A DNA stretch of 64,000 nt from a virus (IMGVR_UViG_637000268_000004:428-64427); one strand, 5' to 3'. Positions 441 to 52,828 are shown, numbered from the stretch's first letter. Translations and numbers: made by a program. The notes: generated by a model not told the origin, from the letters alone.

Positions 441-623
441 GAAAAATCACTCCAATGAATTCTGAGGGTGAGCAACGAACCAAGCACCCTCTTCCCAATC
501 AAACCCATGCCAAGCGAGTCTGTCGACGCCATTGAACACAAACACGGTATCGTTGTAGTTCACGGCAATGCTCTCAAAAAGCCACCAAAATAGAGACATC
601 GCAAGTTAGGCCGCCCCAGAAAC

Positions 624-655
624 GAAAAAGCCCCGCTCGATGGCGGGGCTTTCGT
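624..655. terminator. Intrinsic terminator ending the P1 late operon (possibly bidirectional)
   Basis: aaaaagccccgc-tcgatg-gcggggcttt hairpin; the P2 copy has a compensatory stem change. Confidence 0.85.
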
Positions 656-674
656 CTTTGAGGTTATGCCAGCT

Positions 675-1073
675 TCATCGAAGCGACTTGAGCGCTCCGA
701 CGCCCGTGCCGACATAGAATAGCCACCGGATCATATCCCCGGCCCACTCCTGCATTTGCGGGGTTGGCAGATCTGCGACAGACCAAGTGAATCCGAAGAT
801 GCTGTCGAGAATGACTGCGCTCCACCATGCGGCCAAGGGTACGAGGAAGAGCGCAGCGAACAGCCAAAACCACGGAAAAGCGAGCTTGGCGCGATTGTAG
901 TCGGCCATGATCTGGGCTTCTTTCACGGCCTCACGGGCCAGCTCTACAGTCGTTTGGCTCCTGAGCTTCTCGCGGTCGTTTTGAAGCTCAGCGCGGCGCT
1001 CCAAATGGCTGATGGCTTTGTCCACCATACCGCCGAACCCCATGCGCATGAGGAATGCGATCAAGCCGGTCAT
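675..1073 (-). CDS. Holin-like membrane protein (3TM/GTA-holin-like)
   Basis: Start MTGLIAF overlaps the endolysin stop (ATGA); hydrophobic helices; conserved in P2. Confidence 0.65.
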   Translation of the reverse strand: MTGLIAFLMRMGFGGMVDKAISHLERRAELQNDREKLRSQTTVELAREAVKEAQIMADYNRAKLAFPWFWLFAALFLVPLAAWWSAVILDSIFGFTWSVADLPTPQMQEWAGDMIRWLFYVGTGVGALKSLR

Positions 1074-1879
1074 GCCGCAGCCTCCTGCGAGCGCAGGAAG
1101 TACAGAGCGGCGGTCACAGCAGCAATCAGAAGCACAGCGGCCAAGGCGTAGGCAACAGGGCCTTGAAGCTGTGTGAGGGCGATTGCGCCGCCGCCCAAAG
1201 CGCCGCCATTGGTCCACCCCTTACCAGACGTGATCAACTCCTTGACCGTGGCAGACAGGCTCCGTTCACCGTCTTCGGCGCGGGCCCCCGAACCATCCTC
1301 GCGATAGGACGGCGCGTGAATGACGGCAAGTTCACGATGGAGGTAGACAGCGCGATCGATCACGCCGGTGTCGCGCGCCTGAACGCCGAGGCTTTCCCCC
1401 ATCACCCGGCGTGTCCAGCCGCGGCCAAACGTGCCCCAGTGGCGCAGCTTCTTCAGCCAGGAGAACCGAGCCTGACAGATAGACTGGATCAACCCTTCGA
1501 CGTCCGCGCGGTCTACGGCTTCCATGGTGTTCACCCCGACAATCCCATCAGCCTTGACGCCCAGCTGGCGCTGCATGAACTTCACAGCGCGCGAAACACC
1601 GCTGTTTACCGCGAAGTCAAAGACGCAGTAGTCCAAGCCCCCGGGAAGCTCATCGCCACCCACCTTGTCCCAGTATTGGCTGCGATAGATCGCCTTCACT
1701 TCTTCCATGGTGATCAGTTTCACGCTGCGAGATGACAGCTGACGACGCCGCAGATCGGCATCATATGTGCGCTGGGTGACGCCCATATTCGTTGCTCCCC
1801 CCGGATCCTTGGGGTGGTTCACATAACCGCCTTCATGGGCCAGAACCCAATCAAGGCTTCGGTCGAAGTTCTTCTGCAT
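1070..1879 (-). CDS. Endolysin, glycoside hydrolase family 108 with peptidoglycan-binding region and hydrophobic C-terminus
   Basis: EGGYVNHPKDPGGATNMGVT GH108 motif; position in lysis cassette. Confidence 0.9.
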   Translation of the reverse strand: MQKNFDRSLDWVLAHEGGYVNHPKDPGGATNMGVTQRTYDADLRRRQLSSRSVKLITMEEVKAIYRSQYWDKVGGDELPGGLDYCVFDFAVNSGVSRAVKFMQRQLGVKADGIVGVNTMEAVDRADVEGLIQSICQARFSWLKKLRHWGTFGRGWTRRVMGESLGVQARDTGVIDRAVYLHRELAVIHAPSYREDGSGARAEDGERSLSATVKELITSGKGWTNGGALGGGAIALTQLQGPVAYALAAVLLIAAVTAALYFLRSQEAAA

Positions 1880-1880
1880 T

Positions 1881-2315
1881 CTAGCCTCCGCTGATCGTGA
1901 ATGTGTTGCTGGTGCGCCTGATCTCGCGTGCCCTGCCCTGCGTCGGATGGATGCGCCAGAGAGTGTTCACACGGTATTCCCCCGGTGGCAGGAGGAGCGG
2001 ATCCGCCCACGTCCACCAACAGAGGTCGAGCTTGTCCGGCAGCTGGTTTTCCGGCCGATAGTCATTGGCGCCCTGAAAGGTGCGATAGGTGGCCCAACCA
2101 TAGGATGCGCGCCCCATGATGGTAACGGTCCAGGCGGCCTTAAATGGCCGGTTGATCTCGCGATCAAACTGCATTTCCGGACACTCGCCGGATGCAGCGT
2201 CGGCAACGCGCACCTCCCCAGCCTGAAACCACCAGCTCGCGGGTAGCGCACTGGTCATAAGGCTCAGCGCAAGCACGGCGCCCCAAGCCCCGACGATAAA
2301 CTTGCCCCACGTCAT
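1881..2315 (-). CDS. Hypothetical lysis-cassette protein, N-terminal membrane/signal helix
   Basis: 144 aa ORF coupled to its neighbours; almost identical in P2. Confidence 0.75.
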   Translation of the reverse strand: MTWGKFIVGAWGAVLALSLMTSALPASWWFQAGEVRVADAASGECPEMQFDREINRPFKAAWTVTIMGRASYGWATYRTFQGANDYRPENQLPDKLDLCWWTWADPLLLPPGEYRVNTLWRIHPTQGRAREIRRTSNTFTISGG

Positions 2316-2608
2316 TTCTTGTTCCCCCGCAGAAGTCGGACGGCATCCTCAATGCCAAGAGACAGGATCTGTCGGGCGATATGCTCACCGGTCAGCGCGA
2401 TCAGAGCGCAAACTGCGTAGGTGTAGACCTCGCCATCAAGCTCCAGCCAATCCATAAGCGGCTCAGTGAACACCAGAGCGCAGCAGATCGCTGACGCGGT
2501 GGTGGTGATAGCCCCGAATAGGGTGATTTGGGGCGAGGCGCGCAGCTTCAGCAGGATTGCCGCCGCCATAGCCAGCCAGAATTCAATCGCAAACAGCAGG
2601 TCTTTCAC
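2312..2608 (-). CDS. Small multi-TM protein, holin candidate
   Basis: 98 aa, hydrophobic helices, basic C-terminus; identical protein in P2. Confidence 0.65.
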   Translation of the reverse strand: MKDLLFAIEFWLAMAAAILLKLRASPQITLFGAITTTASAICCALVFTEPLMDWLELDGEVYTYAVCALIALTGEHIARQILSLGIEDAVRLLRGNKK

Positions 2609-13050: not shown

Positions 13051-13443
13051 CTAGATGGGGTGCTCCGAGGTTTCGACACTCAAGAAAACCCATTTACTGT
13101 CCGAGATCGCGTCAACCTCAAGGACATTGTAACGCACGCCGGGGAGCGGATCCTGATCGTCGAGTCCTTCCGGAAGTCCTCGTTTCACCGTGCGCATACG
13201 GACGTTCTGAGCCAGAGACCGAGCGGTACCCAGTTTCCGGATCCGCACTCTGAAAACGGACCGACCCTGCAAGCGGGCCGCGTCGACACTCTCGGATCCT
13301 CTCATGAACATGAACTCAGCGCGGCAGGTTCGGATCTCGGTCCAAACATCGATCGTACCACCCAGACCATCGGGATGTCCGGGAACGCGACGGTCAAACG
13401 CAACAAGCTCTTTTAGCCTGCCGGCTCCAGCTCTATTCTTCAT
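13051..13443 (-). CDS. Head closure / head-tail adaptor
   Basis: AGRLKELVAFDR N-terminus; position. Confidence 0.75.
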   Translation of the reverse strand: MKNRAGAGRLKELVAFDRRVPGHPDGLGGTIDVWTEIRTCRAEFMFMRGSESVDAARLQGRSVFRVRIRKLGTARSLAQNVRMRTVKRGLPEGLDDQDPLPGVRYNVLEVDAISDSKWVFLSVETSEHPI

Positions 13444-13456
13444 GAGTCTCACCCTC

Positions 13457-14038
13457 TCACAAAGGAATGCGCCAGCGCGCCAAAAGAGCACCAACTGGTG
13501 CCGGCCAGCCACTATTCACATCTACCGGCATGATGGCCTCACGATGCTCATACCAAAGACCGACGATCATCTTGATGGCGACTTTCAACCCCGGCGGACA
13601 GGCGTTGGCACCACCGAACCCGGCGATGATCGAAATCCTGACAGGCCAGCTTGTATCTTTTAGCACTGGCATCTGCGTGCCGCTAACCAATGCCAACTGC
13701 GTCCGCTGCGAGGGTCGCGCATTCAGCTCATAGGCTCCTTCCGGCAAGGTCTGCTCCGCCCCGGACGCGTCCAGATAGGTGATGGTTACCGAACGAACCG
13801 GCTCTAGCGGAAGATCAAGTTTGACGGGAAAGCTTGGCAGCTCCAAAAGCCAAGTCTGTGTGATAATGGCCCGCCCAAGGATACCGGACGGGCCATCTAG
13901 GTAGTCCACTGCCGCCGCAATGAGACCCTCGAGCAGCTGATCATCTTCGGTGTCATCCGCCTCGACACGGCAGTGCCTTTTTGCCTCCTCGAGCGACACA
14001 GGAAGATCAGCCGCTGGCGTGGTAAGGGTCAGACGCAT
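13457..14038 (-). CDS. Head-tail connector (gp6-like)
   Basis: PVSLEEAKRHCRV...LKVAIKMIVGLWYEHRE motif. Confidence 0.85.
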   Translation of the reverse strand: MRLTLTTPAADLPVSLEEAKRHCRVEADDTEDDQLLEGLIAAAVDYLDGPSGILGRAIITQTWLLELPSFPVKLDLPLEPVRSVTITYLDASGAEQTLPEGAYELNARPSQRTQLALVSGTQMPVLKDTSWPVRISIIAGFGGANACPPGLKVAIKMIVGLWYEHREAIMPVDVNSGWPAPVGALLARWRIPL

Positions 14039-14041
14039 TCG

Positions 14042-14503
14042 TCAGGCCTTTTTTGCAGTGGATTTCTTGGTGGTATCCGATGAGGACCCTGACGCAGATT
14101 TGCTGGGTTTGGCAGAACCCCCTGAGGCCCCAACGGTGTCGGTTGATGTGGCGTCATCCGAACCAGACGCATCGGCAGCATCCGCTGCGCCAGGATCTCC
14201 GGTGACGGTCTCAAAGGCTGCGGGTGACGACTGATCGCCGCTTCCCGTTTCAATCACCACCGTACTGAGATCGATGCCCGACCCATTCCCAGCCTCTGTG
14301 CCAGATGCAACATCGACAACGGCATCGTCGCGATCCACCGGGCGCCCCAGCTCATCGGCGGTTTCGGTCTTCAAGGCACGTTTAGCGCCAGGAAGAACAG
14401 CAACACCACCCGCGATCAACTTGTCCGCCAACGCATCATCGAATCCGGCGATTTCGCCTGGTTGATACATGCGATAGGATTTCAGAAACTCGACAGACTT
14501 CAT
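14042..14503 (-). CDS. Hypothetical head-associated protein with low-complexity tail
   Basis: ORF coupled to both neighbours. Confidence 0.6.
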   Translation of the reverse strand: MKSVEFLKSYRMYQPGEIAGFDDALADKLIAGGVAVLPGAKRALKTETADELGRPVDRDDAVVDVASGTEAGNGSGIDLSTVVIETGSGDQSSPAAFETVTGDPGAADAADASGSDDATSTDTVGASGGSAKPSKSASGSSSDTTKKSTAKKA

Positions 14504-14961
14504 GCTGGCAAGCGGTCCGCACCGCCGAATACGAGGACGGATGACAACGCGGCCGTGTCAGTATTGGCCGCACTGAGATCGGGGGTGAAGTTCGCGCGAA
14601 CGTAGCGCCCCGCCCCCATGATAGCTGCATCGAGCTCGAGGGTGCCCGTGACGGCTCCACCACCGGAGGGGCCCGTTGCAACCACGGCGCTCGCAGCAGT
14701 GGTCACGGCTGTGGCACCGCTGAGATTCGGGTCGTTGCTGGACTCGATTTCGCAGGCAATCGACAGCGTCTCTCCCTCCGCGAGGGTCGCAGAGAACGGG
14801 ATGGCGAGTACGCAGCTTTGCGGGAAACCGATCTCGCCGCGATCAATGATGGCGCCCACCACTTCGACGTTGTCGCCTGCCCCGCCTGCCGTCGCTGCGA
14901 CGTTGGCGGTGGCGCGCATAACCGAAATCAGCGCGCCGATATTTCGAAATTGTGTGGTCAT
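14500..14961 (-). CDS. Putative capsid decoration/cement protein
   Basis: Directly after the capsid gene; beta-rich, with a ..RYVRA.. motif. Confidence 0.6.
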   Translation of the reverse strand: MTTQFRNIGALISVMRATANVAATAGGAGDNVEVVGAIIDRGEIGFPQSCVLAIPFSATLAEGETLSIACEIESSNDPNLSGATAVTTAASAVVATGPSGGGAVTGTLELDAAIMGAGRYVRANFTPDLSAANTDTAALSSVLVFGGADRLPA

Positions 14962-15024
14962 GACATGTCTCCTCAGTATGACCGAAGGGTAATGGCGGGC
15001 CCGACTGGGCCCACCGGCTCAGGA

Positions 15025-16344
15025 TCAGAGGCCGGGTGCCCAAGTGACGCCCGTAAGGACGGCCACGGCTGGCAGATGGCGCAGGCCAATGTCATGCTGC
15101 ATGATCATCCGCATCAGTGTCTCGTCGCGAGAGAACGCGGCCTGCATATTGCCCGCGGAGTCCTTGTAGGCCGCTTCGGTAGACATCGCGACTTCAATGC
15201 CCATGTGCTCACCAACAAGGATGTGACCCGGATGCGCCAGCATGATCTCGGACTCGTTGCCGCCTCCACCAAGGTTACTCGGGATCTCGGTGGTGATGTG
15301 CACCGGTTTCATGCGCAGCTGGCCATTGGCCATCTCCGGATAAACCTTGTTGCCATTGCCGTCGCGCAGGTTGGTCAGGAACATCGCAATTTGCGGCGAC
15401 ATGATCCAATGCGCCCCGGTCACAACGACATTGTTGTTCGCCAGAGCGAGCTCGAGGCGGCCGAGATCGTTATCCACCTTTTGCAGATCCGGCGCAGCGG
15501 TCATCGTCAGCACATGGGTCGCGGCGAAAGGCGTGCCCGTGTGCTGGAAACGAAGCCCCTTTGGCGCATAATCTGTTCCCGCACCGCGGAGGAAATGACG
15601 ATCCTGGATCTGCGCAGCATCGGCCAGTGCATCATCGCGCACCATTCGGTCGACGGCCGTGGAGGCCGTGCGCAGCAGGTCATTGGATATCGGGATGATC
15701 CCGCTCAGCTTCTTCGCCGACAGCTTCACCTGACCATACTCGTATCCGGTTGCCTTGATGTCCTGCTGCTCACCGCCATATTCGAAATTTGCTCCGCTCG
15801 CGCGGCGGTTGGTAGTCATATTCCCGTTCGGCATGGGAACAATACGCGGGCCCATCGCTGTAACGACGCTGAGCGGGCGCAACAGCTCGATCACCTCACT
15901 GGACACATCTTCCGGCACCAGAAATCCGCCGGCGGTGCCGGTGGACATGTTCTGGCTGGCAAAAAGACCGCTGTCTCCGCTCGCCTCGGCGATCTGCTGT
16001 GCAACATACTGGTTGCCGCCCGCCGCCGCGATCGTGCGCACCATGCGAGCGAACTGCAGGCCTGGCTCCTTCGGGGCTGCGGGTGCAGTCGGTACCCCAC
16101 CAGCTTCGGTGCCCGCAGCACCAGGCAGCGGCGCGGCCGGACGCGCGGCCTCAGCGCGGCGGCGCTCCACATCTTCAAGGCGGGTGAGCTCTGCCGTCAC
16201 CTTATCATCTTCGGCCTTCAGGGCATCGAATTGGGCAGTCTGATCCTCTGTCCATTCCTCCCCATCGCCGATTGACGCAACCAGCGCGTCCATACGGTCG
16301 ATGATACCCGCGCGGCGGGCTCGCAGTTCCAGGATCTTATCCAT
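15025..16344 (-). CDS. Major capsid protein (HK97 fold)
   Basis: GGFLVPED, KKLSGIIPISNDLL motifs and N-terminal coiled coil. Confidence 0.92.
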   Translation of the reverse strand: MDKILELRARRAGIIDRMDALVASIGDGEEWTEDQTAQFDALKAEDDKVTAELTRLEDVERRRAEAARPAAPLPGAAGTEAGGVPTAPAAPKEPGLQFARMVRTIAAAGGNQYVAQQIAEASGDSGLFASQNMSTGTAGGFLVPEDVSSEVIELLRPLSVVTAMGPRIVPMPNGNMTTNRRASGANFEYGGEQQDIKATGYEYGQVKLSAKKLSGIIPISNDLLRTASTAVDRMVRDDALADAAQIQDRHFLRGAGTDYAPKGLRFQHTGTPFAATHVLTMTAAPDLQKVDNDLGRLELALANNNVVVTGAHWIMSPQIAMFLTNLRDGNGNKVYPEMANGQLRMKPVHITTEIPSNLGGGGNESEIMLAHPGHILVGEHMGIEVAMSTEAAYKDSAGNMQAAFSRDETLMRMIMQHDIGLRHLPAVAVLTGVTWAPGL

Positions 16345-16346
16345 GG

Positions 16347-17294
16347 TCAGTTCCTCATTGCGGCGCGCCGCCGCGTTTCGATTTCAGCGGCCGCGTGCGC
16401 ACTGCGACCCGCTCCAGTTTTCCGGGTGCGCCCGGAACCTTCAGTCAGCACCCCCTCAAGTGTGCCAATGCGATCAGCCATGCCCGCCTCGATGGCGCGC
16501 GTGGCCGAGAGCATTGCGCCGCGGCCAAAATCGCTTCGCACGCGATCGGCCGAGACGCGGCGACCGGCGGCCACATCTGCGATGAACACCTCCTCTATGG
16601 CGTCGATGTCTTTCTGGATGGCCGTCCGGCCCTCTTCCGTGGACGGATCCGGACGTTTGTTCGGGGCATTGCTGCTGACGATCTCATAAGACCGGCGCCC
16701 CTGGTTATCCGCCGCCTCCTGCCGGGACAGCGACGCGACCACCCCGATCGAGCCGACCGCCGCAGAGCGATCCATCACGATCTCGCCAAATTGGCTGCAG
16801 AGCCAATAAGCCGCCGAGGCGCAGTTGCCGGTGACAAAGGCGGTGATCGGCTTTGTGGTGGCACGCAGCGTTTCAGACGCTTCGCCGAGCCCGGAGACCA
16901 CGCCGCCCGGGCTATCCACCACCACGACGATCCGATGCACATCGGTCGACGCCTGCGCCACGCGGATGTCCCGCATAAATGCGTTCAAGGAAGTTCCGTC
17001 GGAAGAAGCGTTAATCATCGATGCCCGTGGAAAAATCGGCCCGAACATCGGCACCACGGCGGATCCGTCGCGGACAGTGCTCATCCCAGCTCCCTCGAGG
17101 CGCGTTCCTACCGCCGCAACGGCCGACAAATTGCCTTCGAGGCGCGGAATGTGGCCGTCCTGCGCGATCCGCTTCAGCACGTCTTCATCAAGGGCGCGCA
17201 GCGCGATGGCTTCGATCGCATCGAGATAATCCGGCATGATCGCCCAGGGCTGCGCCCGAATGGCCGCAACCAGCGCCGTCAATTCCTGTTTCAT
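16347..17294 (-). CDS. S49 (SppA/ClpP-like) prohead protease
   Basis: VDSPGG, CASAAYW, VGSIGV motifs. Confidence 0.88.
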   Translation of the reverse strand: MKQELTALVAAIRAQPWAIMPDYLDAIEAIALRALDEDVLKRIAQDGHIPRLEGNLSAVAAVGTRLEGAGMSTVRDGSAVVPMFGPIFPRASMINASSDGTSLNAFMRDIRVAQASTDVHRIVVVVDSPGGVVSGLGEASETLRATTKPITAFVTGNCASAAYWLCSQFGEIVMDRSAAVGSIGVVASLSRQEAADNQGRRSYEIVSSNAPNKRPDPSTEEGRTAIQKDIDAIEEVFIADVAAGRRVSADRVRSDFGRGAMLSATRAIEAGMADRIGTLEGVLTEGSGRTRKTGAGRSAHAAAEIETRRRAAMRN

Positions 17295-18577
17295 GATTGG
17301 TCTCCGCTGGTGTCTTCGGTGCTGCCCGGCGCCGCAGATGCTCCGGCTACTTGCATGTTCGCCGGCATCCAGTAGTCCGTCCCCGCATTGCCTTCGATGT
17401 TGGGAAGGTTCTCGTAGCTGCGCAGTTCGTTGCCGTTCACCATGCCCATCTGGCGTTGCAGCCAATAAGCCTCCATCCTGCTCTTCAGGTCGCCTTTGAC
17501 TAGCTCGGCAGTGACATGCTCAAAGTAGAACCCGATCTTGGCAAAGGCCTTAGTCGCGGCCTGGGCAACCCGCGTGTAATGGGGGCCCAAGTGATAGATG
17601 ACGAACTCGAGGCTTTGTTGCTCGATGTTACCGAAGGTGGCGCGCGACAAATCAAAGATCAGGTGCGGCGGCACACCCCAGATTCGGGCGAGATCGACCA
17701 CCTGAAACTGTCGCGTTTCCAGATATTGGCTGGATTTCAAATCATGAGCCAAGAACTCGGCCTTTAGATCTTGATCGAGGACAGCAACCATATCGGCGTC
17801 TGGACCCGAATACATTTGGGTCCAGTCGGTCTTGATCCGATCCTTATCGGTAGGCCCAATGGCTTTCTCGCTGGTCAGCACCGTCGAAGGGCGCCCGCCC
17901 TTGTTCCAGAACCGAGCCGCGTGATCCGCTGTTGCAATTGCACCGCCCAAGGCATCACGTGCGTATTGCACGGGGTTGAGACCCTGAACCCCATCCCGAG
18001 AGAACCCGCCAACGTGAAAGATATCACGCGCCGGGAAACGCTCATGGCTTCCATCCGGCAAGGTGGCATCGAAAAAAAGGATCGATCCTTCGGCGCGATC
18101 GAAATATTCGACCGGCTGACACTGGCCGGGCTTCAGCCGGGTCACCGCCTTCACCTCGCCCCGAAAATCCCGGCTGACATAGCCGTAGAAATTCCCGGTC
18201 AACAGGATGTCCGCCAACAAGAGCTCAAAGAACGCATAGGCAGTCTGGTGACTGTTTGGACCCAGCCGAAACAACTGCGCCGCCGGGTTGCCTTCGGCCG
18301 ACATCCGCCCCCTGTCGGTCTTCTGGTAAAAATGCAGCGGCGTCATCGCAAAGACGCCGGTCAAGATCCGAAGCGCCTGCAAGGTGGCTGGAATGGTCAA
18401 GGCGGTGGTTTCGCTCACCGGCACGCCGGCCTTTGATCGACCGCCCGCAACGACAAAACCCTTCCATTGACGTTCGCTCGAAACCGAGGTGTCTGAAGCT
18501 GCAGACACCGGTGGTTCAGCGCGCACGGCTGGTTCAGCCAGCGTCGCCGCTGGCCGAAGGAAATCAAAAATTCCCAT
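17291..18577 (-). CDS. Portal protein
   Basis: GNFYG, LNPVQYAR, DLARIWGVPP motifs; between terL and protease. Confidence 0.92.
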   Translation of the reverse strand: MGIFDFLRPAATLAEPAVRAEPPVSAASDTSVSSERQWKGFVVAGGRSKAGVPVSETTALTIPATLQALRILTGVFAMTPLHFYQKTDRGRMSAEGNPAAQLFRLGPNSHQTAYAFFELLLADILLTGNFYGYVSRDFRGEVKAVTRLKPGQCQPVEYFDRAEGSILFFDATLPDGSHERFPARDIFHVGGFSRDGVQGLNPVQYARDALGGAIATADHAARFWNKGGRPSTVLTSEKAIGPTDKDRIKTDWTQMYSGPDADMVAVLDQDLKAEFLAHDLKSSQYLETRQFQVVDLARIWGVPPHLIFDLSRATFGNIEQQSLEFVIYHLGPHYTRVAQAATKAFAKIGFYFEHVTAELVKGDLKSRMEAYWLQRQMGMVNGNELRSYENLPNIEGNAGTDYWMPANMQVAGASAAPGSTEDTSGDQS

Positions 18578-18579
18578 TC

Positions 18580-20280: not shown

Positions 20281-20290
20281 GGATCAAACC

Positions 20291-20821: not shown

Positions 20822-20876
20822 AAAAATTCTCCACATGAGATAGGCGCCGGTTTGGGTATTCCGCCCCCTGGAGGGA

Positions 20877-22018: not shown

Positions 22019-22057
22019 GTTCACCCTCATCATCATTTTCACTGCCCTTTTTCGCCC

Positions 22058-22334: not shown

Positions 22335-22348
22335 GCCCATCCAACCTA

Positions 22349-31607: not shown

Positions 31608-31798
31608 GACTGCCGGATTCCCGGCTCAGAGGTGGAGAGGGACCAGCTGCGGGGGGACGACCACACAAACGTCAAAGGTCCGCAGCCTGTGTCAAGGAAC
31701 AGGCCACCACGTGCGAACCGTGGGCTGTAAATCTGAGAGAGTGAGCGGGCGCTCTTTAAATACCCCCGACCAATTCAGTCGCACTTCAGGAGGCTACT

Positions 31799-34379: not shown

Positions 34380-34380
34380 G

Positions 34381-34632
34381 ATGCCTGTACAGCAGCTATT
34401 CGTTAAAGAGGCGGACATCGCCAAGATGCTAGGCCATGACGTCAAATGGCTGCGCTCAAACAGCGATACACTCGAGCGTCAGTACGGCTTTCCCAAGATT
34501 GATCCTGCCATTGGCATGCGTCATCGTGAGGCAGTTGAGGAATGGGCGCGAGAACGCAACACAAGAACTGCGGCAGCGCGCTCCGGGCGGTTGACGGAAA
34601 GCAACCATACGGAGAACACCGATGCGTTTTAG
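34381..34632 (+). CDS. Excisionase-like winged-HTH protein
   Basis: Small DNA-binding-like ORF overlapping the integrase start; FP.ID..IG.R motif. Confidence 0.65.
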   Translation: MPVQQLFVKEADIAKMLGHDVKWLRSNSDTLERQYGFPKIDPAIGMRHREAVEEWARERNTRTAAARSGRLTESNHTENTDAF

Positions 34633-35854
34633 AGACTCGCTCTGGGACGACAGTGAACCGGCTTACGCGCCGTTCCTGAAGTACCGAAAAGACAGGGACC
34701 GCTATTTCTGGCGGCCCACCAGTAAATATCTCGATGCGGGGTACAGCATCAAAACCTATGATCTTGGGGGATCGCAAGGCGACGGGCTTGATCTAGAGCG
34801 CGCCGCTCAGTGCCGTGCCCTAACTCGAGAAATGCTTCAATGGTTCGATGGGGAGAAGCAGGGCCGCAAGCCAGGAACATGGGGATGGTTGATTGCTCGC
34901 TATCTTTCGGACGAGTTCAGCTCGTATCATGACGTTCTGCCGCAAACCCAGGACAAGTATCGTCAGATGATGGGATACATCGAGCAAGCCATCGGGAATG
35001 TCCTGATCGAAGAAACCGACTTCGAGCGCATGATGCGGTGGAAAAAAGCGATGCAAGACAAGGGCCGTTCCACTCACTACATCAAAAAGTGGTTCACCCA
35101 CTGGAGGCTGGTTGTCTCTCACGGGATCAAGATCGGGGACGATCACTGCTCCAAGATCAAAGCCATCCGTGAGGAGGTCCGGATCCAGAACCCTCCCCGT
35201 CGGTCAACTTACGCGACCCGAGAACAGATCGAGGCAATTGTTGCGCAAGCAGATCGTATGGGGCGCCCGTACCTATCGCTAGCGATCTTGATGCGGTTCG
35301 AGTTCATCCTGCGCGGCGTCGACGTTCACGGCCAATGGGTGAAGGCAAAAGACCAGCAAGGAGGCGTTCGCGACGGTGGACAAATCTGGGTCGACGGCCT
35401 GACATGGGATATGTTCGACCGGGACCTGACCTCCTTCACCAAAGTGATCAGCAAAACCCGCAAAAGCCTGACAGAGCCATACACCTTCAGCCTGAAGCAC
35501 ACCCCAGAAATCCGAGAACGCCTTTTGGCAATCCCCAAGGATCAGCGCACCGGCCCGGTAATCAAACTGAGCTCCGGGAAGCCGCCCAAAAACGGTGTCA
35601 TTTCGCGAAGCTTCAAAGAGGTTCTCCGGCAGGTCAATCAAGCTCGCAAGCGCTCCGACCTCGAGCCCTTCCCTGATGAGCTACAGATCCGGGACACGCG
35701 AGCCGGCGGCATCACCGAAGCCATGTCTCTGGTCGACCCTACAACCCTCCAGCACGCTGCTCAGCACACCCAGGGCGCCACTACCGCGATCTACACCCGC
35801 GATCGCTCAGGATCGGCAAACAACGTTGTCAAGATTCGAGCAAATCGCGGCTGA
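34622..35854 (+). CDS. int: Tyrosine integrase
   Basis: Box I LR, IRDTR, H(TQGATT)AIY catalytic residues; adjacent to att. Confidence 0.85.
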   Translation: MRFRDSLWDDSEPAYAPFLKYRKDRDRYFWRPTSKYLDAGYSIKTYDLGGSQGDGLDLERAAQCRALTREMLQWFDGEKQGRKPGTWGWLIARYLSDEFSSYHDVLPQTQDKYRQMMGYIEQAIGNVLIEETDFERMMRWKKAMQDKGRSTHYIKKWFTHWRLVVSHGIKIGDDHCSKIKAIREEVRIQNPPRRSTYATREQIEAIVAQADRMGRPYLSLAILMRFEFILRGVDVHGQWVKAKDQQGGVRDGGQIWVDGLTWDMFDRDLTSFTKVISKTRKSLTEPYTFSLKHTPEIRERLLAIPKDQRTGPVIKLSSGKPPKNGVISRSFKEVLRQVNQARKRSDLEPFPDELQIRDTRAGGITEAMSLVDPTTLQHAAQHTQGATTAIYTRDRSGSANNVVKIRANRG

Positions 35855-35945: not shown

Positions 35946-35999
35946 TGGTACGGGCGGCGGGATTCGAACCCGCACGGCTTACGCCTGGGGATTTTAAGT
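35946..35999 (-). tRNA. 3' half of tRNA-Leu(TAA) only; att core at the P1/P2 junction
   Basis: Minus strand ACTTAAAATCCCCAGGCGTAAGCCGTGCGGGTTCGAATCCCGCCGCCCGTACCA has anticodon loop, long variable arm, T arm and CCA; the 5' acceptor/D arm is missing. Confidence 0.85.
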
Positions 36000-36094
36000 T
36001 CTATTTGAACCATCTAAAATCAAAGCCTTACCCAAATTCACTCACACGGACATTTCGAAAACAAAGCAAGAATGTGTGAGTCGGGCTTTGTAGG

Positions 36095-36289
36095 TCAATT
36101 CTGACCACTCGCACGAAAGACGACGCGCGCGCCGTGCTGGAGCGTTACCTCCAAATCTCGCGAGGTACTTGCAACCGTTCGCCGGTAAACCACTTCGGCG
36201 ACCGCAAAGCTCTCGAAGTGCTCATCTGAGACAATTCGATCCTTAGCGTCTCTGATTACCACGCGGTGATCGACGTGAATTTTCCCCAC
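36095..36289 (-). CDS. Hypothetical protein
   Basis: GTG start after AAGGAG. Confidence 0.5.
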   Translation of the reverse strand: MGKIHVDHRVVIRDAKDRIVSDEHFESFAVAEVVYRRTVASTSRDLEVTLQHGARVVFRASGQN

Positions 36290-36300
36290 TACTCGCTCCT

Positions 36301-36555
36301 TCAAGAACTCGGCTCGAACCGGCCGCACATTGGGTCGCCGCCATCAAAGGCTGGCTGGACCCACCTCATACCGACAGCTGCCGCAGTAGCCTCATGTTCG
36401 ATTACACAGAGACATAATTCTTCGAGGTCAAAACCTTTTTCAGCCACACTATGACGGAGCAGATCCTCGTCGTTGATTACGACAGATCCAAGCGCGGCTC
36501 GGACGTCTCCGACCGTCTCCAGGCATTTATCCCCTAGCCAAGCCGTCACGCACAT
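36301..36555 (-). CDS. Hypothetical protein
   Basis: ATG after AAGGAG. Confidence 0.55.
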   Translation of the reverse strand: MCVTAWLGDKCLETVGDVRAALGSVVINDEDLLRHSVAEKGFDLEELCLCVIEHEATAAAVGMRWVQPAFDGGDPMCGRFEPSS

Positions 36556-36575
36556 AGACTCGCTCCTTTTCTGGA

Positions 36576-37217
36576 TCACTCTCCAACGATATCCGGGGCG
36601 CGGTGGCCCGCGTCCCATTCCTTCTGCCAGGCGTAGTATGCCGCCCGGCTGATCGTCGGCCCATCGAGTTCCTTCATCGCCTTCCAGACCGTGTTGCCGC
36701 GCTCACCAGCGGCAAGCATTTCCTCTGCCTTGGCAACCCGCTCCGGCGTCATAGCCTTTGGTCGGCCACCCACGTCGCCGCGCTCTTTCGCCCGCTCGAT
36801 CCCGGCCTTGGTGCGCTCCACGATCAGGTCTCGCTCCAGTTCGGCGAAGACGGCCAGAAGGTGGATCATAGCCTTGCCCATAGGGCCCGTGGTGTCGATC
36901 CGCTCCGTCAGGCTGACGAAGGTAACGCCGCGGTCTGACAGCAGCTTGAGCGTATCCAGCACGCCGCCAAGGGTCCGCCCAAGGCGGTCCAGCTTCCAGA
37001 CGACCAGCTCCGTCCCTTCATATTGGGCATACCTCAGCGCCCTCATGAACTGGGGTCGCTTCATGGTGCCGCCGCTGGCCCGGTCCACAAAGATCAATTC
37101 CTCTGGGACGCCGTACCGCTTCAGCTCATGGATCTGCATATCCGGGTTTTGGTCGGCAGTGGAGACGCGAGCGTATCCGATCTTGCGTGTCGGCTGGTTC
37201 TCGGATTCGGACGCCAC
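36576..37217 (-). CDS. Small serine recombinase (resolvase/invertase family)
   Basis: GYARVST, LVVWKLDRLGR, ERTKAG...G..GGRP motifs. Confidence 0.93.
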   Translation of the reverse strand: MASESENQPTRKIGYARVSTADQNPDMQIHELKRYGVPEELIFVDRASGGTMKRPQFMRALRYAQYEGTELVVWKLDRLGRTLGGVLDTLKLLSDRGVTFVSLTERIDTTGPMGKAMIHLLAVFAELERDLIVERTKAGIERAKERGDVGGRPKAMTPERVAKAEEMLAAGERGNTVWKAMKELDGPTISRAAYYAWQKEWDAGHRAPDIVGE

Positions 37218-37231
37218 TTTCTTACTACCTC

Positions 37232-37303
37232 GCGTAAAATTTTCACGCCTAATCTGGACTAACTATCTAGACAGGTCAACTGCAGCGCGATACAGTCCAG
37301 AAA
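37232..37303. promoter_or_regulatory. Divergent promoter region with putative recombinase-binding repeats
   Basis: GTCYAGAWW at 37251-37259 (-), 37264-37272 (-) and 37295-37303 (+); near-palindrome at 37232-37248. Confidence 0.45.
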
Positions 37304-37348
37304 CATAGTCTTGTTACCAGTTCCGCGCCGCCTGAAAAGGAGCCTTAA

Positions 37349-37864
37349 ATGCCAAGATCAGAGATTTGCAAAAACTGCTGCCCGAATGGCGGAGCCCTCT
37401 TTGACCTGAAGTACGGAGAGTTCGAAGACTTCGACACGGGCGAAGTCATGGCCGAGCCAGGCTACCGGAAAATTTGCAGGAACTGCGGGTACGCAAAGAA
37501 GGTTCGCAAACGGAAGCCTCGCCCGACCATCGACCAGATCTGCCAAATGCAAAGCCCGGAAGGCTTGCGCAATTGCAAGGATCTGGGCCGCTTCCACTAC
37601 TTTGCAGAGGCGGGAGTGTGGAAGAAGCTGCAAAGCGTTTGCGACCGATACGCAGAGCTTGCGCGGGAAAGAGGCATCACCAAGTATCCTCTTTTCCTGC
37701 ACTGGCGATACAACCGTCACGATGCTGAAGCCCTTTACAAGGAAATCAGCAAGTCAAGGTCCAATGCGAGGCAGGTGCGGATCCGCATCAGCCAACTGCA
37801 GGACCTTTTGGAGCGCGCTGAGGTGGCGCTCAAGAATGACTTTCAGATGAAGGCCGCAGCGTGA
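37349..37864 (+). CDS. Hypothetical protein with N-terminal CxxC...CxxC zinc ribbon
   Basis: ATG after AAGGAG; CKNC and CRNC pairs. Confidence 0.65.
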   Translation: MPRSEICKNCCPNGGALFDLKYGEFEDFDTGEVMAEPGYRKICRNCGYAKKVRKRKPRPTIDQICQMQSPEGLRNCKDLGRFHYFAEAGVWKKLQSVCDRYAELARERGITKYPLFLHWRYNRHDAEALYKEISKSRSNARQVRIRISQLQDLLERAEVALKNDFQMKAAA

Positions 37865-38124
37865 TGAGCAGTGCCGCCCACGATGCCGTCGAATCCCAGG
37901 CGACCATGAAGCGCAGGAAGAAACATAGGCGCGAGAAAGTTTGGTTCATGAAAGGCGCAGCCTGGGCGGTCGATAGGTCTTACCACCTGCCGATCACTGA
38001 CGAAGGCATGCGGCACTTCATGTGGGGAGCCGACTGCGTGAGAGAGGGCAGAATGGCGATCAACGACATCAGCTCTTTTCACCAGCATATCGAAGCGCTC
38101 CAGTCCGGCCATATCCCCGCTTAA
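37861..38124 (+). CDS. Hypothetical protein
   Basis: Coupled to the previous gene. Confidence 0.55.
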   Translation: MMSSAAHDAVESQATMKRRKKHRREKVWFMKGAAWAVDRSYHLPITDEGMRHFMWGADCVREGRMAINDISSFHQHIEALQSGHIPA

Positions 38125-38163
38125 CCCAATCATGAAATCCGTTGCACTAGCAGGACCAACCCA

Positions 38164-38373
38164 ATGAAACCTGATCACGTCCAAAATAAAGCGGTTAAAC
38201 CGTCCTGGCGGCAGCTGTGGCGCGAGATCCGGTGCTGCATCGTCGGGCACCAGTTCTATGTGCCGCGCGGCGGCGGCTATCCCGGCATGCCACAGTCCCA
38301 CTGCTACCGTTGCGGTGCGCCTTGCTCCTACGGGTACAAGGGCACCGATTGGGTAGACCCCAAGAAATCCTAA
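38164..38373 (+). CDS. Small Cys/His prophage protein (DUF1660-like)
   Basis: C.IVGH.F...C.RCG pattern. Confidence 0.55.
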   Translation: MKPDHVQNKAVKPSWRQLWREIRCCIVGHQFYVPRGGGYPGMPQSHCYRCGAPCSYGYKGTDWVDPKKS

Positions 38374-38390
38374 AAACCCCCGGAGGCCAC

Positions 38391-38672
38391 ATGACACCAG
38401 CAGAACGCTTTGAAAAATTGAGCGACGATTACCCGATGCCGTGGCAACTCGTCTGCCAGTATGTCGCTGGGGACTACATCCCGGAGCGCATCCTGGACCG
38501 TGATGGAAACAAGGTCATGGATTGCAAATGGGGAGCGGCCACAGAGGCCGGGAAGCACCTCTACGCTTGCCTTGTGGAGGCGTCGCATGACCGCGTGAAA
38601 TTCGGCAATCCGTGGAACTGTATGGACGCCAACCAAATCCGCGCGCTGACCGCGAAATTTGAACACTCCTGA
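38391..38672 (+). CDS. Hypothetical protein
   Basis: ATG after GGAGG. Confidence 0.6.
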   Translation: MTPAERFEKLSDDYPMPWQLVCQYVAGDYIPERILDRDGNKVMDCKWGAATEAGKHLYACLVEASHDRVKFGNPWNCMDANQIRALTAKFEHS

Positions 38673-38720
38673 AATCCCCCCTCTGTGCATCAGCGCACGA
38701 TCAAGAGCGGATCAAGAAAC

Positions 38721-51085: not shown

Positions 51086-51183
51086 ATCATCATCCTTTGG
51101 TTCAGTGGTTCAAACAGGCCGGGGGAACGAACCACCTTCCGCCCGGCCCTACCGTTCCTGAGAACGGATCAGCGCGCGGCAGG

Positions 51184-51633
51184 TTAGGCTGCGGCCTTCT
51201 TCAGGATCTCGTCGGGCATGATCTCAATCGAGGTAGTCGCCGTCACAACGTCATCGACACCGCCGATGCTCGGCTTGAACGACATGACCAGACCCACAAG
51301 GTAGTAGATCGTGCCATCTTGGAGTGTCACGGCGATGTAGACAGGATCATCGCTTTCGAGAGCGGTTTCCATTGCAGCTTGGCCCGCGTCGTCGGGGTCA
51401 AGCGCGAGGCTGGGGCTCAGGGTGCCGTTATTGAAGCTACCCTTGCCTTTCTTCGTGCCGCGGGTGGCCAGCGGGTTGTGAGTCACAAGTTGCCACTCCT
51501 TGCCGAACTCACCCACGTTCGTGATTTCACCAACGGAAGTGAAGGTGAGAGCGTCAAAGCCGGTGATGTCGTGAGTTGCGGGTGCAGCGGCCGAAATGCC
51601 GAGTGTCACCCCAGAGGCGGTCTGGTGCGCCAT
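51184..51633 (-). CDS. Major tail tube protein
   Basis: Identical to 11394-11843. Confidence 0.8.
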   Translation of the reverse strand: MAHQTASGVTLGISAAAPATHDITGFDALTFTSVGEITNVGEFGKEWQLVTHNPLATRGTKKGKGSFNNGTLSPSLALDPDDAGQAAMETALESDDPVYIAVTLQDGTIYYLVGLVMSFKPSIGGVDDVVTATTSIEIMPDEILKKAAA

Positions 51634-51693
51634 ATCAGTTTCCTTTCAGGATAGAGAGAAAGCGCCTAGGGGCGCGGATTTATAGGCCGAGGC

Positions 51694-51978
51694 CTATTCT
51701 TTCGGAACGACAGCCAATGGGGCGGAGAACTCAGCCATCACCTCGCCGTCGGACTCGACCGCTTCGGAGACTTTCCCCCGGTAGGTCACGCCGTTCTTCA
51801 GAGTGAACTCGAGAACATCACCCGGTTTGGGCAGCGGGCCTTTGAAAAGAGCGAAGGGATGCGTGGGCTTATTTTGCTCCATGGGCATGCGCTTCAGTTC
51901 GACACCTGTGACAACCATCGGTGCAGCGTCTTTGGATGCAGGTTTTGAGGCCGCCGAAGCGGTTTTCTTTGCGGTCAT
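51694..51978 (-). CDS. Hypothetical tail-region protein
   Basis: Identical to 11904-12188. Confidence 0.65.
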   Translation of the reverse strand: MTAKKTASAASKPASKDAAPMVVTGVELKRMPMEQNKPTHPFALFKGPLPKPGDVLEFTLKNGVTYRGKVSEAVESDGEVMAEFSAPLAVVPKE

Positions 51979-52019
51979 TGAATGATCCTTTCGAGGGTGA
52001 TTGAGGCTGTTTCAGCCAG

Positions 52020-52373
52020 TCAGTCGCGATAAGTGATCGCGAATGTCAGAGAGACCCGGTGTGCAGCCGAGGCATCGCCGCTGTTGCTGTCTCGGATCGC
52101 AGTGAGAAGCGCACTGACGATCGGGCCGCCGCGGTATCCTTCCAGTAAAGCCCGGACTTCACGAGACGCGCCGATAGCTTGATTATAGGTCGCGCCCCAG
52201 CAGTCGATCTGAGTGGAGCCTTGCATCAGCCCCTTGCTGTTCAGGGTGTGGTAGCGCTTCCCCGACATACGGGTCATGGTCACGCGTGGCATGGTCTCCC
52301 CATCGCTGAAGAAGCCCCACTTCACCGGGCAACTCAGGGCGTCGGAGAGAGTTGAATACAGGTGCTCTTCCAT
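52020..52373 (-). CDS. Tail terminator (DUF3168-like)
   Basis: Paralogue of 12230-12583. Confidence 0.75.
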   Translation of the reverse strand: MEEHLYSTLSDALSCPVKWGFFSDGETMPRVTMTRMSGKRYHTLNSKGLMQGSTQIDCWGATYNQAIGASREVRALLEGYRGGPIVSALLTAIRDSNSGDASAAHRVSLTFAITYRD

Positions 52374-52828
52374 TAGAAGCCTCGCTTTGCGCGGCGCGCC
52401 AGGGTCGCCTCGATCTCTTCTCGCAAGGACGCGGCCAGTCCCTCTAGGATCTGCCCACGGAATGCATCCCAGGAAGGTGTCAACATCGGTCGAGGCGAGA
52501 CCGCACCAACGTACTTTCCGCTTTCGTGAAAGCGAGGCTCTGTGCCAAATTCCAGTAGATGCGAGTGAGGTGCGGAAGGAGTTGCGCCAACATACATAGT
52601 CACCGCAGTGGTGCTGCTTTTGGCTTTTTGCAGGTTTCTCTTGAGCTTGGAGGAAACAGCGAATGCACTGTCGTCGGCGCCAGGCCATAGCCCGTTCGCC
52701 ATATCTGCGACCGGCTGCAGCTCCTTCGACAGCGCGCGGCGCACAACCGCCTTGGAGGTGGCCTTGGGCAGCGCCGCCAGTGCATTGTCGATCTCTCGAA
52801 GCCCCTCGACCTTGAATGACGCCTTCAT
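52373..52828 (-). CDS. HK97 gp10-like protein
   Basis: Paralogue of 12583-13038; last gene of the shared block. Confidence 0.8.
   Translation of the reverse strand: MKASFKVEGLREIDNALAALPKATSKAVVRRALSKELQPVADMANGLWPGADDSAFAVSSKLKRNLQKAKSSTTAVTMYVGATPSAPHSHLLEFGTEPRFHESGKYVGAVSPRPMLTPSWDAFRGQILEGLAASLREEIEATLARRAKRGF

Follow-up and report, generated by a model that had tools for sequence, protein, structure and literature searches.

Organization of the tandem prophages

The window analysed here is a stretch of 64,000 nucleotides (IMGVR_UViG_637000268_000004:428-64427), and positions are counted from its first letter, so that negative numbers and numbers above 64,000 lie outside it. In this marine roseobacter two distinct temperate phages, P1 and P2, occupy the 3′ half of the only tRNA-Leu(UAA) gene in a head-to-tail arrangement. 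The att core consists of 54 nt of this 3′ half, and its direct copies at -1634, 35946 and 74427 delimit P1 (37,580 bp) and P2 (38,481 bp). The attL of P1 (-1634..-1581) is outside the window, and P1 begins just to the right of it at about -1580. The middle copy, attM (35946..35999, minus strand), runs from the anticodon loop to CCA and doubles as the attR of P1 and the attL of P2. It has three mismatches to attL and attR, located in the variable-arm loop and the T-loop, and the cloverleaf is preserved. The attR of P2 (74427-74480, outside the window) lies within an intact tRNA-Leu(taa) gene. Each phage brought its own integrase and, as part of attP, a copy of the tRNA stretch between anticodon loop and CCA.

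Both phages have full gene sets between the att copies, each with a tyrosine integrase adjoining its att. The P1 integrase (34622..35854, plus strand) is a divergent tyrosine recombinase of 410 aa that matches phrog_1 (E 8e-14) and has an Atlas feature score of 0.99 against the tyrosine-integrase clusters. The P2 integrase (73258-74304) also has an Atlas score of 0.99, and its PF00589 match of 23.4 bits is below the cut-off. The two are divergent, with no BLASTP similarity to one another, and Pfam and NCBIfam at curated cut-offs miss both. The integrase-side arm of P1 contains three GTGTACC repeats, which in P1 are confined to that arm. A candidate arm motif of P2, TGTGTGAGTCGGG, is present in both P2 arms, with one copy at ~36073.

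At its inner end (1..617, minus strand), the cargo arm of P1 encodes ORFs of 288 and 198 aa without PHROG, Pfam or PADLOC matches. After the shared genes described below, the P1 head and packaging module (13051..21242, minus strand) comprises head closure, adaptor, S49 protease, portal, putative TerS and HNH genes, assigned from PHROGs and Pfam, with the PF05065 capsid at 15025-16344 and TerL at 18580-20280 (both minus). The regulatory and replication region (21431..34632; PHROGs and Pfam) contains primase-type replication genes, ParB-like genes and a leftward early operon. It includes a NusG-like late regulator (21431-22108) and the immunity region (~27170-30080).

P2 starts with its distal arm and cargo (36000..38714), in which a stretch of 208 nt (36094-36301) is common to P2 and a third prophage, P3 (see below). 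The cargo encodes a Hin/Gin-type serine invertase (36576-37217) and three further ORFs with no family matches. The head and packaging module of P2 (52825..59767, minus strand) contains head closure, adaptor, S78 protease, portal, P27-type TerS and HNH genes, with the PF05065 capsid at 53977-55188 and TerL at 57107-58888 (both minus). It is followed by a NusG-like late regulator and replication region (60307..64000, minus strand) including a methyltransferase, SSB (61153-61632), a replication initiator (62394-63146) and RusA (63143-63499), the last three also on the minus strand. Beyond the window, P2 continues up to 74426 with a CI-like repressor, HicB, an exonuclease, a methyltransferase, the integrase and a Sak4-like annealase (68090-69067).

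The initial annotation had described the heads of the two phages as unrelated, but BLASTP detects similarity between the portals (28% identity, E 1e-33), head–tail adaptors (40%, E 7e-35), TerL (24%) and HNH proteins (26%), and both capsids are assigned to PF05065. The head-closure proteins are just 44% identical over 62 aa. Solely the capsid, protease, small terminase and integrase pairs gave no BLASTP match between P1 and P2. The proteases are of different types as had been stated, S49 in P1 and S78/HK97-type in P2. Judged by sequence, the two heads are distant homologues. P1 and P2 do not exclude one another, since their immunity regions, replicons, head genes and fibre tips are different.

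An empty attB is present in a sister strain (GCA_029455205.1, locus L020), in which the tRNA-Leu(taa) gene is identical and intact and the flanks, 98.0–98.6% identical and collinear, abut at this gene. Contig SRR9438286_121 from an independent short-read assembly corresponds to window positions 12889-36239 at 100% identity and crosses the junction between P1 integrase, att and P2; that assembly is interrupted only within the repeats. The region is very probably a tandem double lysogen of two apparently intact HK97-like siphovirus prophages that share a mobile tail and lysis module derived from a phage pool.

The shared tail-plus-lysis block

Comparison of the window with itself by BLASTN gives exactly three collinear direct-repeat blocks of 94.4–95.6% identity, all on the minus strand. 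Block A (618-3278 and 38715-41375) is 95.6% identical, gapless and offset by 38097. Block B (4118-10035 and 42788-48703) is 95.1% identical with two 1-nt gaps and an offset of 38670, and block C (10416-13042 and 50206-52832) is 94.4% identical with an offset of 39790. These blocks bear out the match of 620-13038 to 38714-52828 reported in the initial annotation, and its three offsets (38097, about 38670 and 39790) agree with ours. In total ~11.2 kb is shared at ~95% nucleotide identity, with the beginning of the tail-completion gene as one limit and the late-operon terminator as the other. A sliding-identity alignment, proposed earlier as a check, gives 100-nt bins that vary from 68 to 100% and 21 exact runs of 100–460 nt. 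The longest exact run, 460 nt at 2576-3035, encloses the stretch 2580-3035 that had been judged identical by eye. Of 15 shared proteins, five are 100% identical, in line with the earlier mention of several identical proteins, and a further six are 94–99% identical. The description of the module as near-identical therefore fits its proteins but not its DNA, which is patchy in its similarity.

Block A includes the late-operon terminator hairpin (626-653 in P1, 38723-38750 in P2). In P1 it encodes a 132/180-aa protein, a GH108 endolysin (1070-1879, minus strand; PHROG endolysin match), proteins of 144 and 98 aa at the holin position and a DUF1353 protein (2615-2962, minus strand); Pfam families seen on relatives were also used for the assignments, and a PHROG chaperone match falls within the block. 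The P2 copy contains the lysis genes and DUF1353 protein as in P1.

Between blocks A and B each phage has its own receptor-binding cassette (3279..4117 in P1, 41376..42787 in P2, both minus strand), formed by the N-terminal part of a DUF4376 protein and the C-terminal domain of the fibre. The P1 cassette has no BLASTN match in P2. The DUF4376 gene (PF14301) is at 2940-3455 in P1 and 41037-41669 in P2, both minus, and the C-terminal ~115 aa of its product are shared. The fibre genes (3443-4513 in P1, 41666-43183 in P2, both minus) share the first ~130 aa. The P1 fibre ends in a Gly-rich domain (PF21722, Gly_rich_2), whereas that of P2 has C-terminal repeats of ~52 aa resembling β-propeller blades; its gene contains four 46-nt repeats spaced by 153–159 nt, and matches to SGL/lactonase propellers are weak.

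Block B encodes the N-terminal anchor of the fibre, the distal tail protein (314/326 aa; 4510-5490 in P1, minus strand; phrog_6278) and the tape measure protein (1525 aa at 5454-10031 in P1, minus strand, with PHROG tape-measure matches; 1521 aa in P2). These last two proteins are 94.5% and 96.7% identical between the phages. An insert found in P2 and not in P1 (48704..50205, minus strand) separates the tape measure gene from the chaperone genes. A moron within it codes for a DUF6414-like protein of 326 aa (49055-50035, minus strand; phrog_9699, with a weak PF19952 match), and toxin–antitoxin genes occupy this slot in relatives.

Block C, assigned through PHROG matches, encodes in both copies chaperones, the major tail protein, the tail terminator and the tail-completion protein. 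In P1 these are two chaperone-like genes (10412-10747 and 10846-11295), the major tail protein (11394-11843), a 94-aa protein, the terminator (12230-12583) and the tail-completion/Neck1 protein (12583-13038), with coordinates on the minus strand. Three block C proteins match at 100%, and identity is 95–100% for the tail tube, terminator, tail-completion and chaperone proteins. Homology drops in the chaperone-like gene at 10412-10747 (111 aa; 68–79% nucleotide and 73% amino acid identity), beside the P2 insert; this is the fading that had been noticed in a gp10-like gene.

Origin of the shared block

A third prophage of the same host, P3, overlooked in the initial annotation, is inserted at tRNA-Val and carries the distal half of the module with an L017-type head and a fibre of the P2 type (94.7%). 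P3 and the loci L014, L016 and L017-L019 carry the module with other heads, fibres, endolysins and toxin–antitoxin morons. The metagenomic relatives are external contigs in which the block is joined to different heads, fibres, lysis genes and morons, so that the module is paired with at least three head types. A megablast search of 50,697 phage records gave no match to the module, and the distal tail protein has at best ~31% amino acid identity to isolated phages; P1 and P2 are therefore undescribed among isolates. The shared block is very probably a mobile module of a recombining roseobacter phage pool and not the outcome of duplication, mis-assembly or homogenization in situ.

The last of these would take the form of gene conversion among the co-resident P1, P2 and P3, by which the tail and lysis genes evolve in concert. 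Recombination functions are encoded, and P3 has 13 differences within the 460-nt tract that is exact between P1 and P2. Identity in the lysis block is 96.9–97.4% among the three resident copies and ~91% between these and the two external copies. A Sawyer-type run test identifies a P1–P2 run of 50 concordant polymorphic sites (p ~0.0005), but external pairs show runs of equal significance. There is phylogenetic incongruence along the module: the closest pair alternates, each of the three site partitions is frequent (28/41/29 and 63/79/112), and concordance runs reach significance in many pairs. In the tape-measure/distal-tail block, moreover, the external L016 is as near to each resident (95.7–96.2%) as the residents are to one another (96.0–96.5%), and the similarity is therefore ascribed to the recombining pool. 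The module copies differ by 3–5% overall, above the 1.4–2% by which the host flanks diverge from the empty-site sister strain, which argues that most of this divergence is older than co-residence. With identical tracts of at most 460 nt, the resident copies appear to have exchanged sequence rarely or long ago, and concerted evolution is considered unlikely as the cause of the similarity.

Two large and similar blocks ~38 kb apart resemble duplicated or mis-joined contigs, and the initial annotation had itself listed mis-assembly among the outcomes that would refute its reading. The copies, however, are ~5% apart and differ by their fibres and an insert, and the heads, replicons and integrases differ as well. 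Three proper att copies lie at the tRNA; mis-assembly is excluded by the empty site of the sister strain and by the independent contig, which spans the junction. An artefact, or a recent segmental duplication of a single prophage, was rejected on these grounds as having almost no likelihood. It is also very unlikely that one or both prophages are defective remnants from which no viable hybrid or mixed particle could arise. The divergence of the integrases beyond the curated cut-offs and the mismatched att arms of a hybrid would fit decay, but uninterrupted ORFs are present for all expected functions, the sizes of 37.6 and 38.5 kb are typical and the att sites are intact. If the host is Silicibacter/Ruegeria sp. 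TM1040, as IMG taxon 637000268 and the replicon sizes would suggest, the three intact elements agree in number with the three mitomycin-C-inducible prophages reported for TM1040 (PMC5488378).

Predicted hybrid phages and related systems

The two copies of the module form direct repeats 38–40 kb apart, and therefore a single homologous crossover would give two products. The first, whose geometry the initial annotation had correctly deduced, would be a unit-length circle of 38,097, 38,670 or 39,790 bp that joins the P1 body (head, replicon, immunity, integrase and middle att) to the cargo and lysis genes of P2, with or without the P2 fibre. The fibre would be included for most crossovers, as had been proposed, since blocks B and C make up 76% of the homologous length. 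The second product, missed previously, would be the reciprocal hybrid prophage retained in the chromosome. RecA, named earlier as the agent, is a possible host route but not a necessary one, as P2 has its own genes for a Sak4-like annealase, SSB, an exonuclease and RusA; after induction the crossover could be catalysed by the Sak4-like annealase with SSB. The exact runs of 100–460 nt are of sufficient length to support strand exchange. Mismatch repair is expected to lower RecA-dependent exchange at 5% divergence.

The predicted hybrid would have a complete gene set and a size of 101.4–105.9% of P1. By analogy with lambda, the 39,790-bp class (~106% of P1) may approach the packaging limit. The attP of any hybrid circle would consist of attM with the integrase-side arm of P1 and the distal arm of P2, which lacks the GTGTACC repeats. 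Because these arms are mismatched, it is uncertain whether the hybrid could integrate or its reciprocal in the chromosome could excise, and lysogeny by the hybrid may fail. Anatomy and boundaries of the prophages, their empty site and the population context of the module are shown by the sequences, whereas a useful rate of crossover and the ability of hybrids to be packaged and to integrate are inferred. Co-induction would in addition pool near-identical tail parts, and phenotypic mixing between P1 and P2 is plausible given the 95–100% identity of the tail tube, terminator, tail-completion and chaperone proteins, provided that the head-closure protein of one phage would take the tail of the other.

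It is tempting, if doubtful, to propose that the block is kept in three heteroimmune prophages for its payoff: an interchangeable tail pool with two fibre types on co-induction, and frequent unit-length hybrids with swapped fibre and cargo through the tandem geometry and the Sak4–SSB functions of P2 and P3. If so, the arrangement would be a built-in device for host-range diversification and not a passive by-product of mosaicism. The pair is an ordinary, if clean, case of phage mosaicism, in which the shared block could give rise to a hybrid phage.

Tandem lysogens and recombinant hybrids are classical concepts. HK97-like and lambdoid siphoviruses show modular mosaicism, and as in those mosaics the transitions here are abrupt and coincide with the borders of genes or domains (where head genes meet tail genes, in the middle of the tape measure, between the N-terminal anchor and the tip of the fibre, and at the operon terminator). 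Tandem dilysogens of lambda release phage through general recombination. As in these dilysogens, and in the hybrid phages formed by homologous recombination between the co-resident SPbeta and phi3Ts genomes of Bacillus subtilis (bioRxiv 10.1101/2020.05.06.055103), homologous blocks of collinear temperate phages would serve for crossover, and one exchange would be enough to give a unit-length recombinant genome. In those systems, however, hybrids were observed by experiment and homology is at least 99% over long stretches, whereas here it is ~95% and hybrids are predicted.

Heterologous prophages in tandem at one tRNA attB are known from Mycobacterium abscessus (prophiT36-2a/2b; PMC9934374), and tandem prophages of E. 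coli have been viewed as having a ‘shared att’ (PMC8112680). The present pair similarly comprises two phages at one tRNA-derived site with three att copies, own integrases, unrelated repressors and partial nucleotide similarity. It differs in its marine roseobacter host, in the use of tRNA-Leu(UAA) with a crossover at the anticodon loop, in integrases without BLASTP similarity, in a shared segment that amounts to the entire tail-plus-lysis operon block, and in lacking integration-dependent immunity. Finally, relaxed recombination has been described for phage annealases such as Sak4 (PMC5928155; PMC5499656), and P2 resembles such phages in its Sak4-like annealase and SSB.

Tandem integration at one tRNA-Leu(UAA) gene

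P1 and P2 are a tandem double lysogen at one tRNA-Leu(UAA). The window corresponds to C1:1713796-1777795 on the chromosome (C1) of a three-replicon genome, and a probe spanning the junction between the P1 integrase and P2 detects a 54-nt direct repeat at -1634..-1581, 35946..35999 and 74427..74480 (negative positions and those above 64,000 lie in the flanks). The rightmost copy sits within an intact tRNA-Leu(taa) gene, and the repeat is the stretch of the tRNA from the anticodon loop to CCA. These three positions give lengths, att to att, of 37,580 bp for P1 and 38,481 bp for P2. Between the middle copy (attM, between the two prophages) and the outer copies there are three differences, in the variable-arm loop and the T-loop; as all three lie in loops, the tRNA cloverleaf is kept. 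The differences fit a tRNA half brought by P1, with crossover in the anticodon loop.

A tyrosine integrase gene adjoins the right-hand att of its own prophage in both P1 (34622-35854) and P2 (73258-74304; L002:9258-10304 in the region right of the window). Both proteins are divergent. The sole family match of the P1 integrase is phrog_1 and the PF00589 match of the P2 integrase falls under the cut-off; language-model features place both at 0.99 to tyrosine-integrase clusters. Both are missed at the curated cut-offs of Pfam and NCBIfam. They show no BLASTP similarity to each other, and searching both against the PDB by sequence returned nothing informative. Two integrases dissimilar by BLASTP target one and the same stretch of tRNA-Leu(UAA), 54 nt long, and the end points in the anticodon loop and at CCA are identical for both.

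A sister strain (GCA_029455205.1) carries the empty site, its flanks (98.0-98.6% identical) meeting at an identical tRNA-Leu gene. The chromosome contig of this strain (JAROYT010000011.1) is 122,681 bp shorter than C1, which is near the combined length of P1 and P2 (~76.0 kb) and P3, a third prophage of the same genome (~40.7 kb). The length difference suggests that the sister strain may lack all three prophages.

Two other origins of the arrangement were rejected. Both mis-assembly, which the initial annotation had raised against the duplication, and tandem duplication of one prophage are at odds with copies that are ~5% different and carry distinct cassettes. In addition, a separate short-read assembly reproduces the junction. 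A Logan contig of SRR9438286 is 100% identical to window 12889-36239. It begins 154 nt within the shared block, covers all P1-specific DNA together with the integrase and the middle att, and ends 240 nt into P2; a second contig of this run corresponds to 52679-59859. Both contigs end where the repeats grow too alike to resolve. Exact-protein look-ups with both capsids and the P1 integrase matched nothing beyond this 100%-identical short-read assembly, whose contigs support the junction but are not independent strains, and that with the P2 integrase recorded no match.

A shared tail and lysis module between diverged heads

Comparing the P1 and P2 halves of the window by BLASTN gives exactly three collinear direct-repeat blocks. 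Block A, the lysis end, pairs 618-3278 with 38715-41375 (95.6%, no gaps, offset 38097). Block B, from the fibre anchor to the tape measure, pairs 4118-10035 with 42788-48703 (95.1%, two 1-nt gaps, offset 38670), and block C, from the chaperones to tail completion, pairs 10416-13042 with 50206-52832 (94.4%, offset 39790). The offsets agree with those read from the sequence in the initial annotation, and the segment 2580-3035, which had looked identical by eye, falls within an exact run of 460 nt (2576-3035), the longest of 21 such runs of at least 100 nt. Identity is uneven, ranging from 68 to 100% per 100-nt bin, and at a mean of 95% the 460-nt run is not explainable by uniform divergence. The module had been described as near-identical, with several identical proteins. 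This holds for 11 of the 15 shared products, but the DNA is only ~95% identical. Five are 100% identical (the 98-aa protein, the DUF1353 protein, the 149-aa chaperone-like protein, the major tail protein and the 94-aa protein) and another six lie at 94-99%: endolysin 98.9%, tail terminator 97.4%, tape measure 96.7%, post-endolysin protein 95.6%, tail-completion protein 95.4% and distal tail protein 94.5%.

From PHROG and Pfam scans, together with precomputed Pfam matches on relatives, the shared block is identified as the distal part of a siphovirus late operon. The order is tail-completion/Neck1, tail terminator, major tail protein, two chaperone-like genes, a 1525-aa tape measure, a 314/326-aa distal tail protein, fibre, DUF4376 protein, DUF1353 protein, two small proteins in the holin position, a GH108 endolysin and a 132/180-aa protein. 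Both edges are functional borders. On the head side (13042/52832) the module ends where the tail-completion gene starts, at the physical head–tail joint, and the opposite edge (618/38715) lies just beyond a G+C-rich hairpin and T run (626-653 / 38723-38750) whose stems carry compensatory changes between the two copies. The module is interrupted internally at two places. One is the receptor-binding cassette. Both prophages have in common the N-terminal ~130 aa of the fibre and the C-terminal ~115 aa of the DUF4376 protein; in the stretch between these parts P1 has a Gly-rich domain (PF21722) and P2 has a domain of ~52-aa repeats resembling propeller blades. The other is an insert found only in P2 (48704-50205), with a DUF6414-like gene.

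This insert occupies a hot spot for morons, flanked by the tail chaperone genes on one side and the tape measure gene on the other. Contigs of external relatives carry toxin–antitoxin morons in the same slot (L014:1768-2830, L016:1322-1917 and L017:4634-5108), namely HigB/HicB, HigB-like plus an HTH protein, and BrnT. The DUF6414-like moron and the cargo ORFs have no match in PADLOC, Pfam or NCBIfam.

Beyond the joint, the gene order is alike in both prophages (HNH–TerS–TerL–portal–protease–capsid–adaptor–closure). The heads had been called unrelated; judged by gene order and protein comparison they are diverged relatives. Capsid, protease and TerS give no BLASTP match between P1 and P2, and the proteases are of different type (S49 in P1, S78 in P2), but portal (28%, E 1e-33), adaptor (40%, E 7e-35), head closure (44% over 62 aa), TerL (24%) and HNH (26%) retain similarity and both capsids belong to PF05065. 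The replicons, which had been called unrelated too, differ in type: P1 has a primase/ParB-like replicon and P2 an O-like initiator with SSB and Sak4. Within the window P2 encodes SSB, the replication initiator and RusA, and beyond it (64001-74426) a CI-like repressor, HicB, a Sak4-like annealase, an exonuclease, a methyltransferase and the integrase.

The third copy and the origin of the module

A genome-wide BLAST search locates a third copy of the module, inverted, at C1:861471-869288. This is part of P3 (C1:832105-872758), an intact-looking 40.6-kb prophage at tRNA-Val(cac) with a 47-nt att repeat at its ends; an IMG/VR contig of IMG taxon 637000268 matches it at 100% identity. A large part of the early region, a fibre of the P2 type, the lysis genes and a terminal segment of 208 nt are common to P3 and P2, each at 82-98%; with P1, P3 shares the lysis genes, the distal tape measure and tail genes. 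The P3 head and proximal tail represent a third type, resembling the metagenomic locus L017. The P3 tape measure gene (L004:9581-13936) is chimeric: the N-terminal ~590 aa are L017-like and the C-terminal 867 aa are 94% identical to P1, which places a recombination joint inside the gene. As P3 is inverted and lies ~0.85 Mb away, recombination in the chromosome between it and P1 or P2 would invert this segment.

Distal tail proteins of this family are few, 25 at E<=1e-10, and the closest with a name is from Pseudophaeobacter. Clustering at 90% puts 14 proteins together, among them copies from a Rhodobacteraceae single-cell genome and several metagenomes. On these external contigs the module is joined to different fibres, a different type of endolysin and different heads. 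Module DNA has no megablast match among 50,697 phage records, and module proteins reach at most ~31% identity to phages (of Vibrio, Salicola and Caulobacter). A DNA search of 40 related species genomes gave short weak matches only, the module being absent at this level from those sampled, and no relative was found for the distal tail protein among genome contigs.

The likeness of the resident copies could stem from a pool of phages or from homogenisation in situ. In the lysis block the residents are 96.9-97.4% identical mutually and ~91% to outside copies (n=2). In the tape-measure/distal-tail block the identity of the external copy L016 to the residents P1, P2 and P3 is 95.7-96.2%, and that among the residents themselves is 96.0-96.5%. 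Informative sites back all three groupings (28/41/29 and 63/79/112), and the closest pair alternates along the module. A Sawyer-type run test detects a P1–P2 concordant run of 50 polymorphic sites over the 460-nt tract (p ~0.0005), and is significant too for many pairs with outside copies. The module copies have diverged by 3-5%, more than the 1.4-2% that separates the host flanks from those of the sister strain with the empty site. The simplest reading of these comparisons is that the phages came in with ~95% similar modules from a freely recombining pool, and that since arrival there would have been occasional short exchange at most.

Predicted hybrids and other genes

The initial annotation proposed that recombination between the repeats would release a chimeric phage from a 38–40 kb circle. 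The geometry is right, and release itself is a prediction. Depending on the block, a single exchange between the repeated copies yields a circle of 38,097, 38,670 or 39,790 bp (101.4, 102.9 or 105.9% of P1), predicted to contain the P1 proximal tail, head, packaging, replicon, immunity and int, the middle att, and the P2 cargo and lysis genes. For most crossovers the fibre would come from P2: blocks B and C make up 76% of the homologous length, and an exchange in either also gives the circle the P2 fibre tip. The reciprocal hybrid left in the chromosome would have the P2 body and the P1 left arm (36.3-38.0 kb). RecA could readily use the exact tracts, which are 100-460 nt long, though 5% divergence should lower the rate. 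After induction, the P2 Sak4-like annealase, with SSB, exonuclease and RusA, could perform the exchange. Phage annealases reportedly tolerate divergence (PMC5499656, PMC5928155).

The att arms may limit such hybrids. The arms of P2 attP share TGTGTGAGTC(GGG), which is found twice in the int-side arm and once in the distal arm together with an inverted partial copy; a shared word of this length arose in 0 of 200 shuffles. In P1 the int-side arm has three copies of GTGTACC, a motif that neither distal arm contains. The candidate arm-type integrase sites from the motif search lie at window 35855-35945 and 36040-36085 and at L002:10304-10426. Since the hybrid attP is the middle att, the P1 integrase would be paired with a foreign distal arm, and excision of the reciprocal resident hybrid would need the P2 integrase to act on a P1 arm. 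Integration of the hybrid or excision of its reciprocal may therefore be impaired. Phenotypic mixing on co-induction is plausible, as the tail-side partners are 95-100% identical and both head-closure proteins must already dock on nearly the same tail top.

Tandem dilysogens of lambda classically release phage through general recombination. In M. abscessus two different phages with partly shared sequence lie in tandem at one tRNA attB (PMC9934374). The shared-att account of tandem prophages is the traditional view (PMC8112680), and experiments have demonstrated that hybrid phages form where the genomes of phages sharing a cell are homologous (bioRxiv 10.1101/2020.05.06.055103). As both tandem prophages and hybrids are already described, the P1/P2 locus is a well-resolved case of a known kind and adds no new mechanism conceptually. 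It is a very clean natural case, in that the prophages are heteroimmune, have dissimilar integrases, occupy the same sublocation in one tRNA gene and share a module whose edges match the head–tail interface and an operon terminator. The empty-site sister strain could be used as an indicator host. Flanking genes and replicons point to a host of the Roseobacter group, the nearest named replicons being those of Tritonibacter mobilis (~84.6%), and IMG taxon 637000268 is presumably Silicibacter/Ruegeria sp. TM1040. According to PMC5488378, TM1040 has three mitomycin-C-inducible prophages. If the identity is true, these prophages are already known to be inducible, and the strain would be a convenient roseobacter model for the rates of hybrids and mixed particles and for the role of annealase versus RecA.

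A NusG-like/antiterminator-family gene is located directly 5' of the HNH–terminase late operon in both P1 (21431-22108) and P2 (60307-60876). The two belong to phrog_6386, with a weak PF02357 match on the P1 copy, and are 25% identical. The P1 immunity region (28538-30078) has two convergent ORFs of 227 aa (weak HTH_3 match) and 299 aa that are without a PHROG, Pfam or PADLOC family and differ from the LuxI/LuxR modules reported in Phaeobacter inhibens prophages (bioRxiv 10.64898/2026.07.02.736140). The P2 cargo beside the att includes a Hin/Gin-type serine invertase (36576-37217; phrog_125, E 4e-59), with no convincing inverted repeats bounding an invertible segment within 8 kb. The external contig L014 carries a resolvase fragment at the position matching this invertase.
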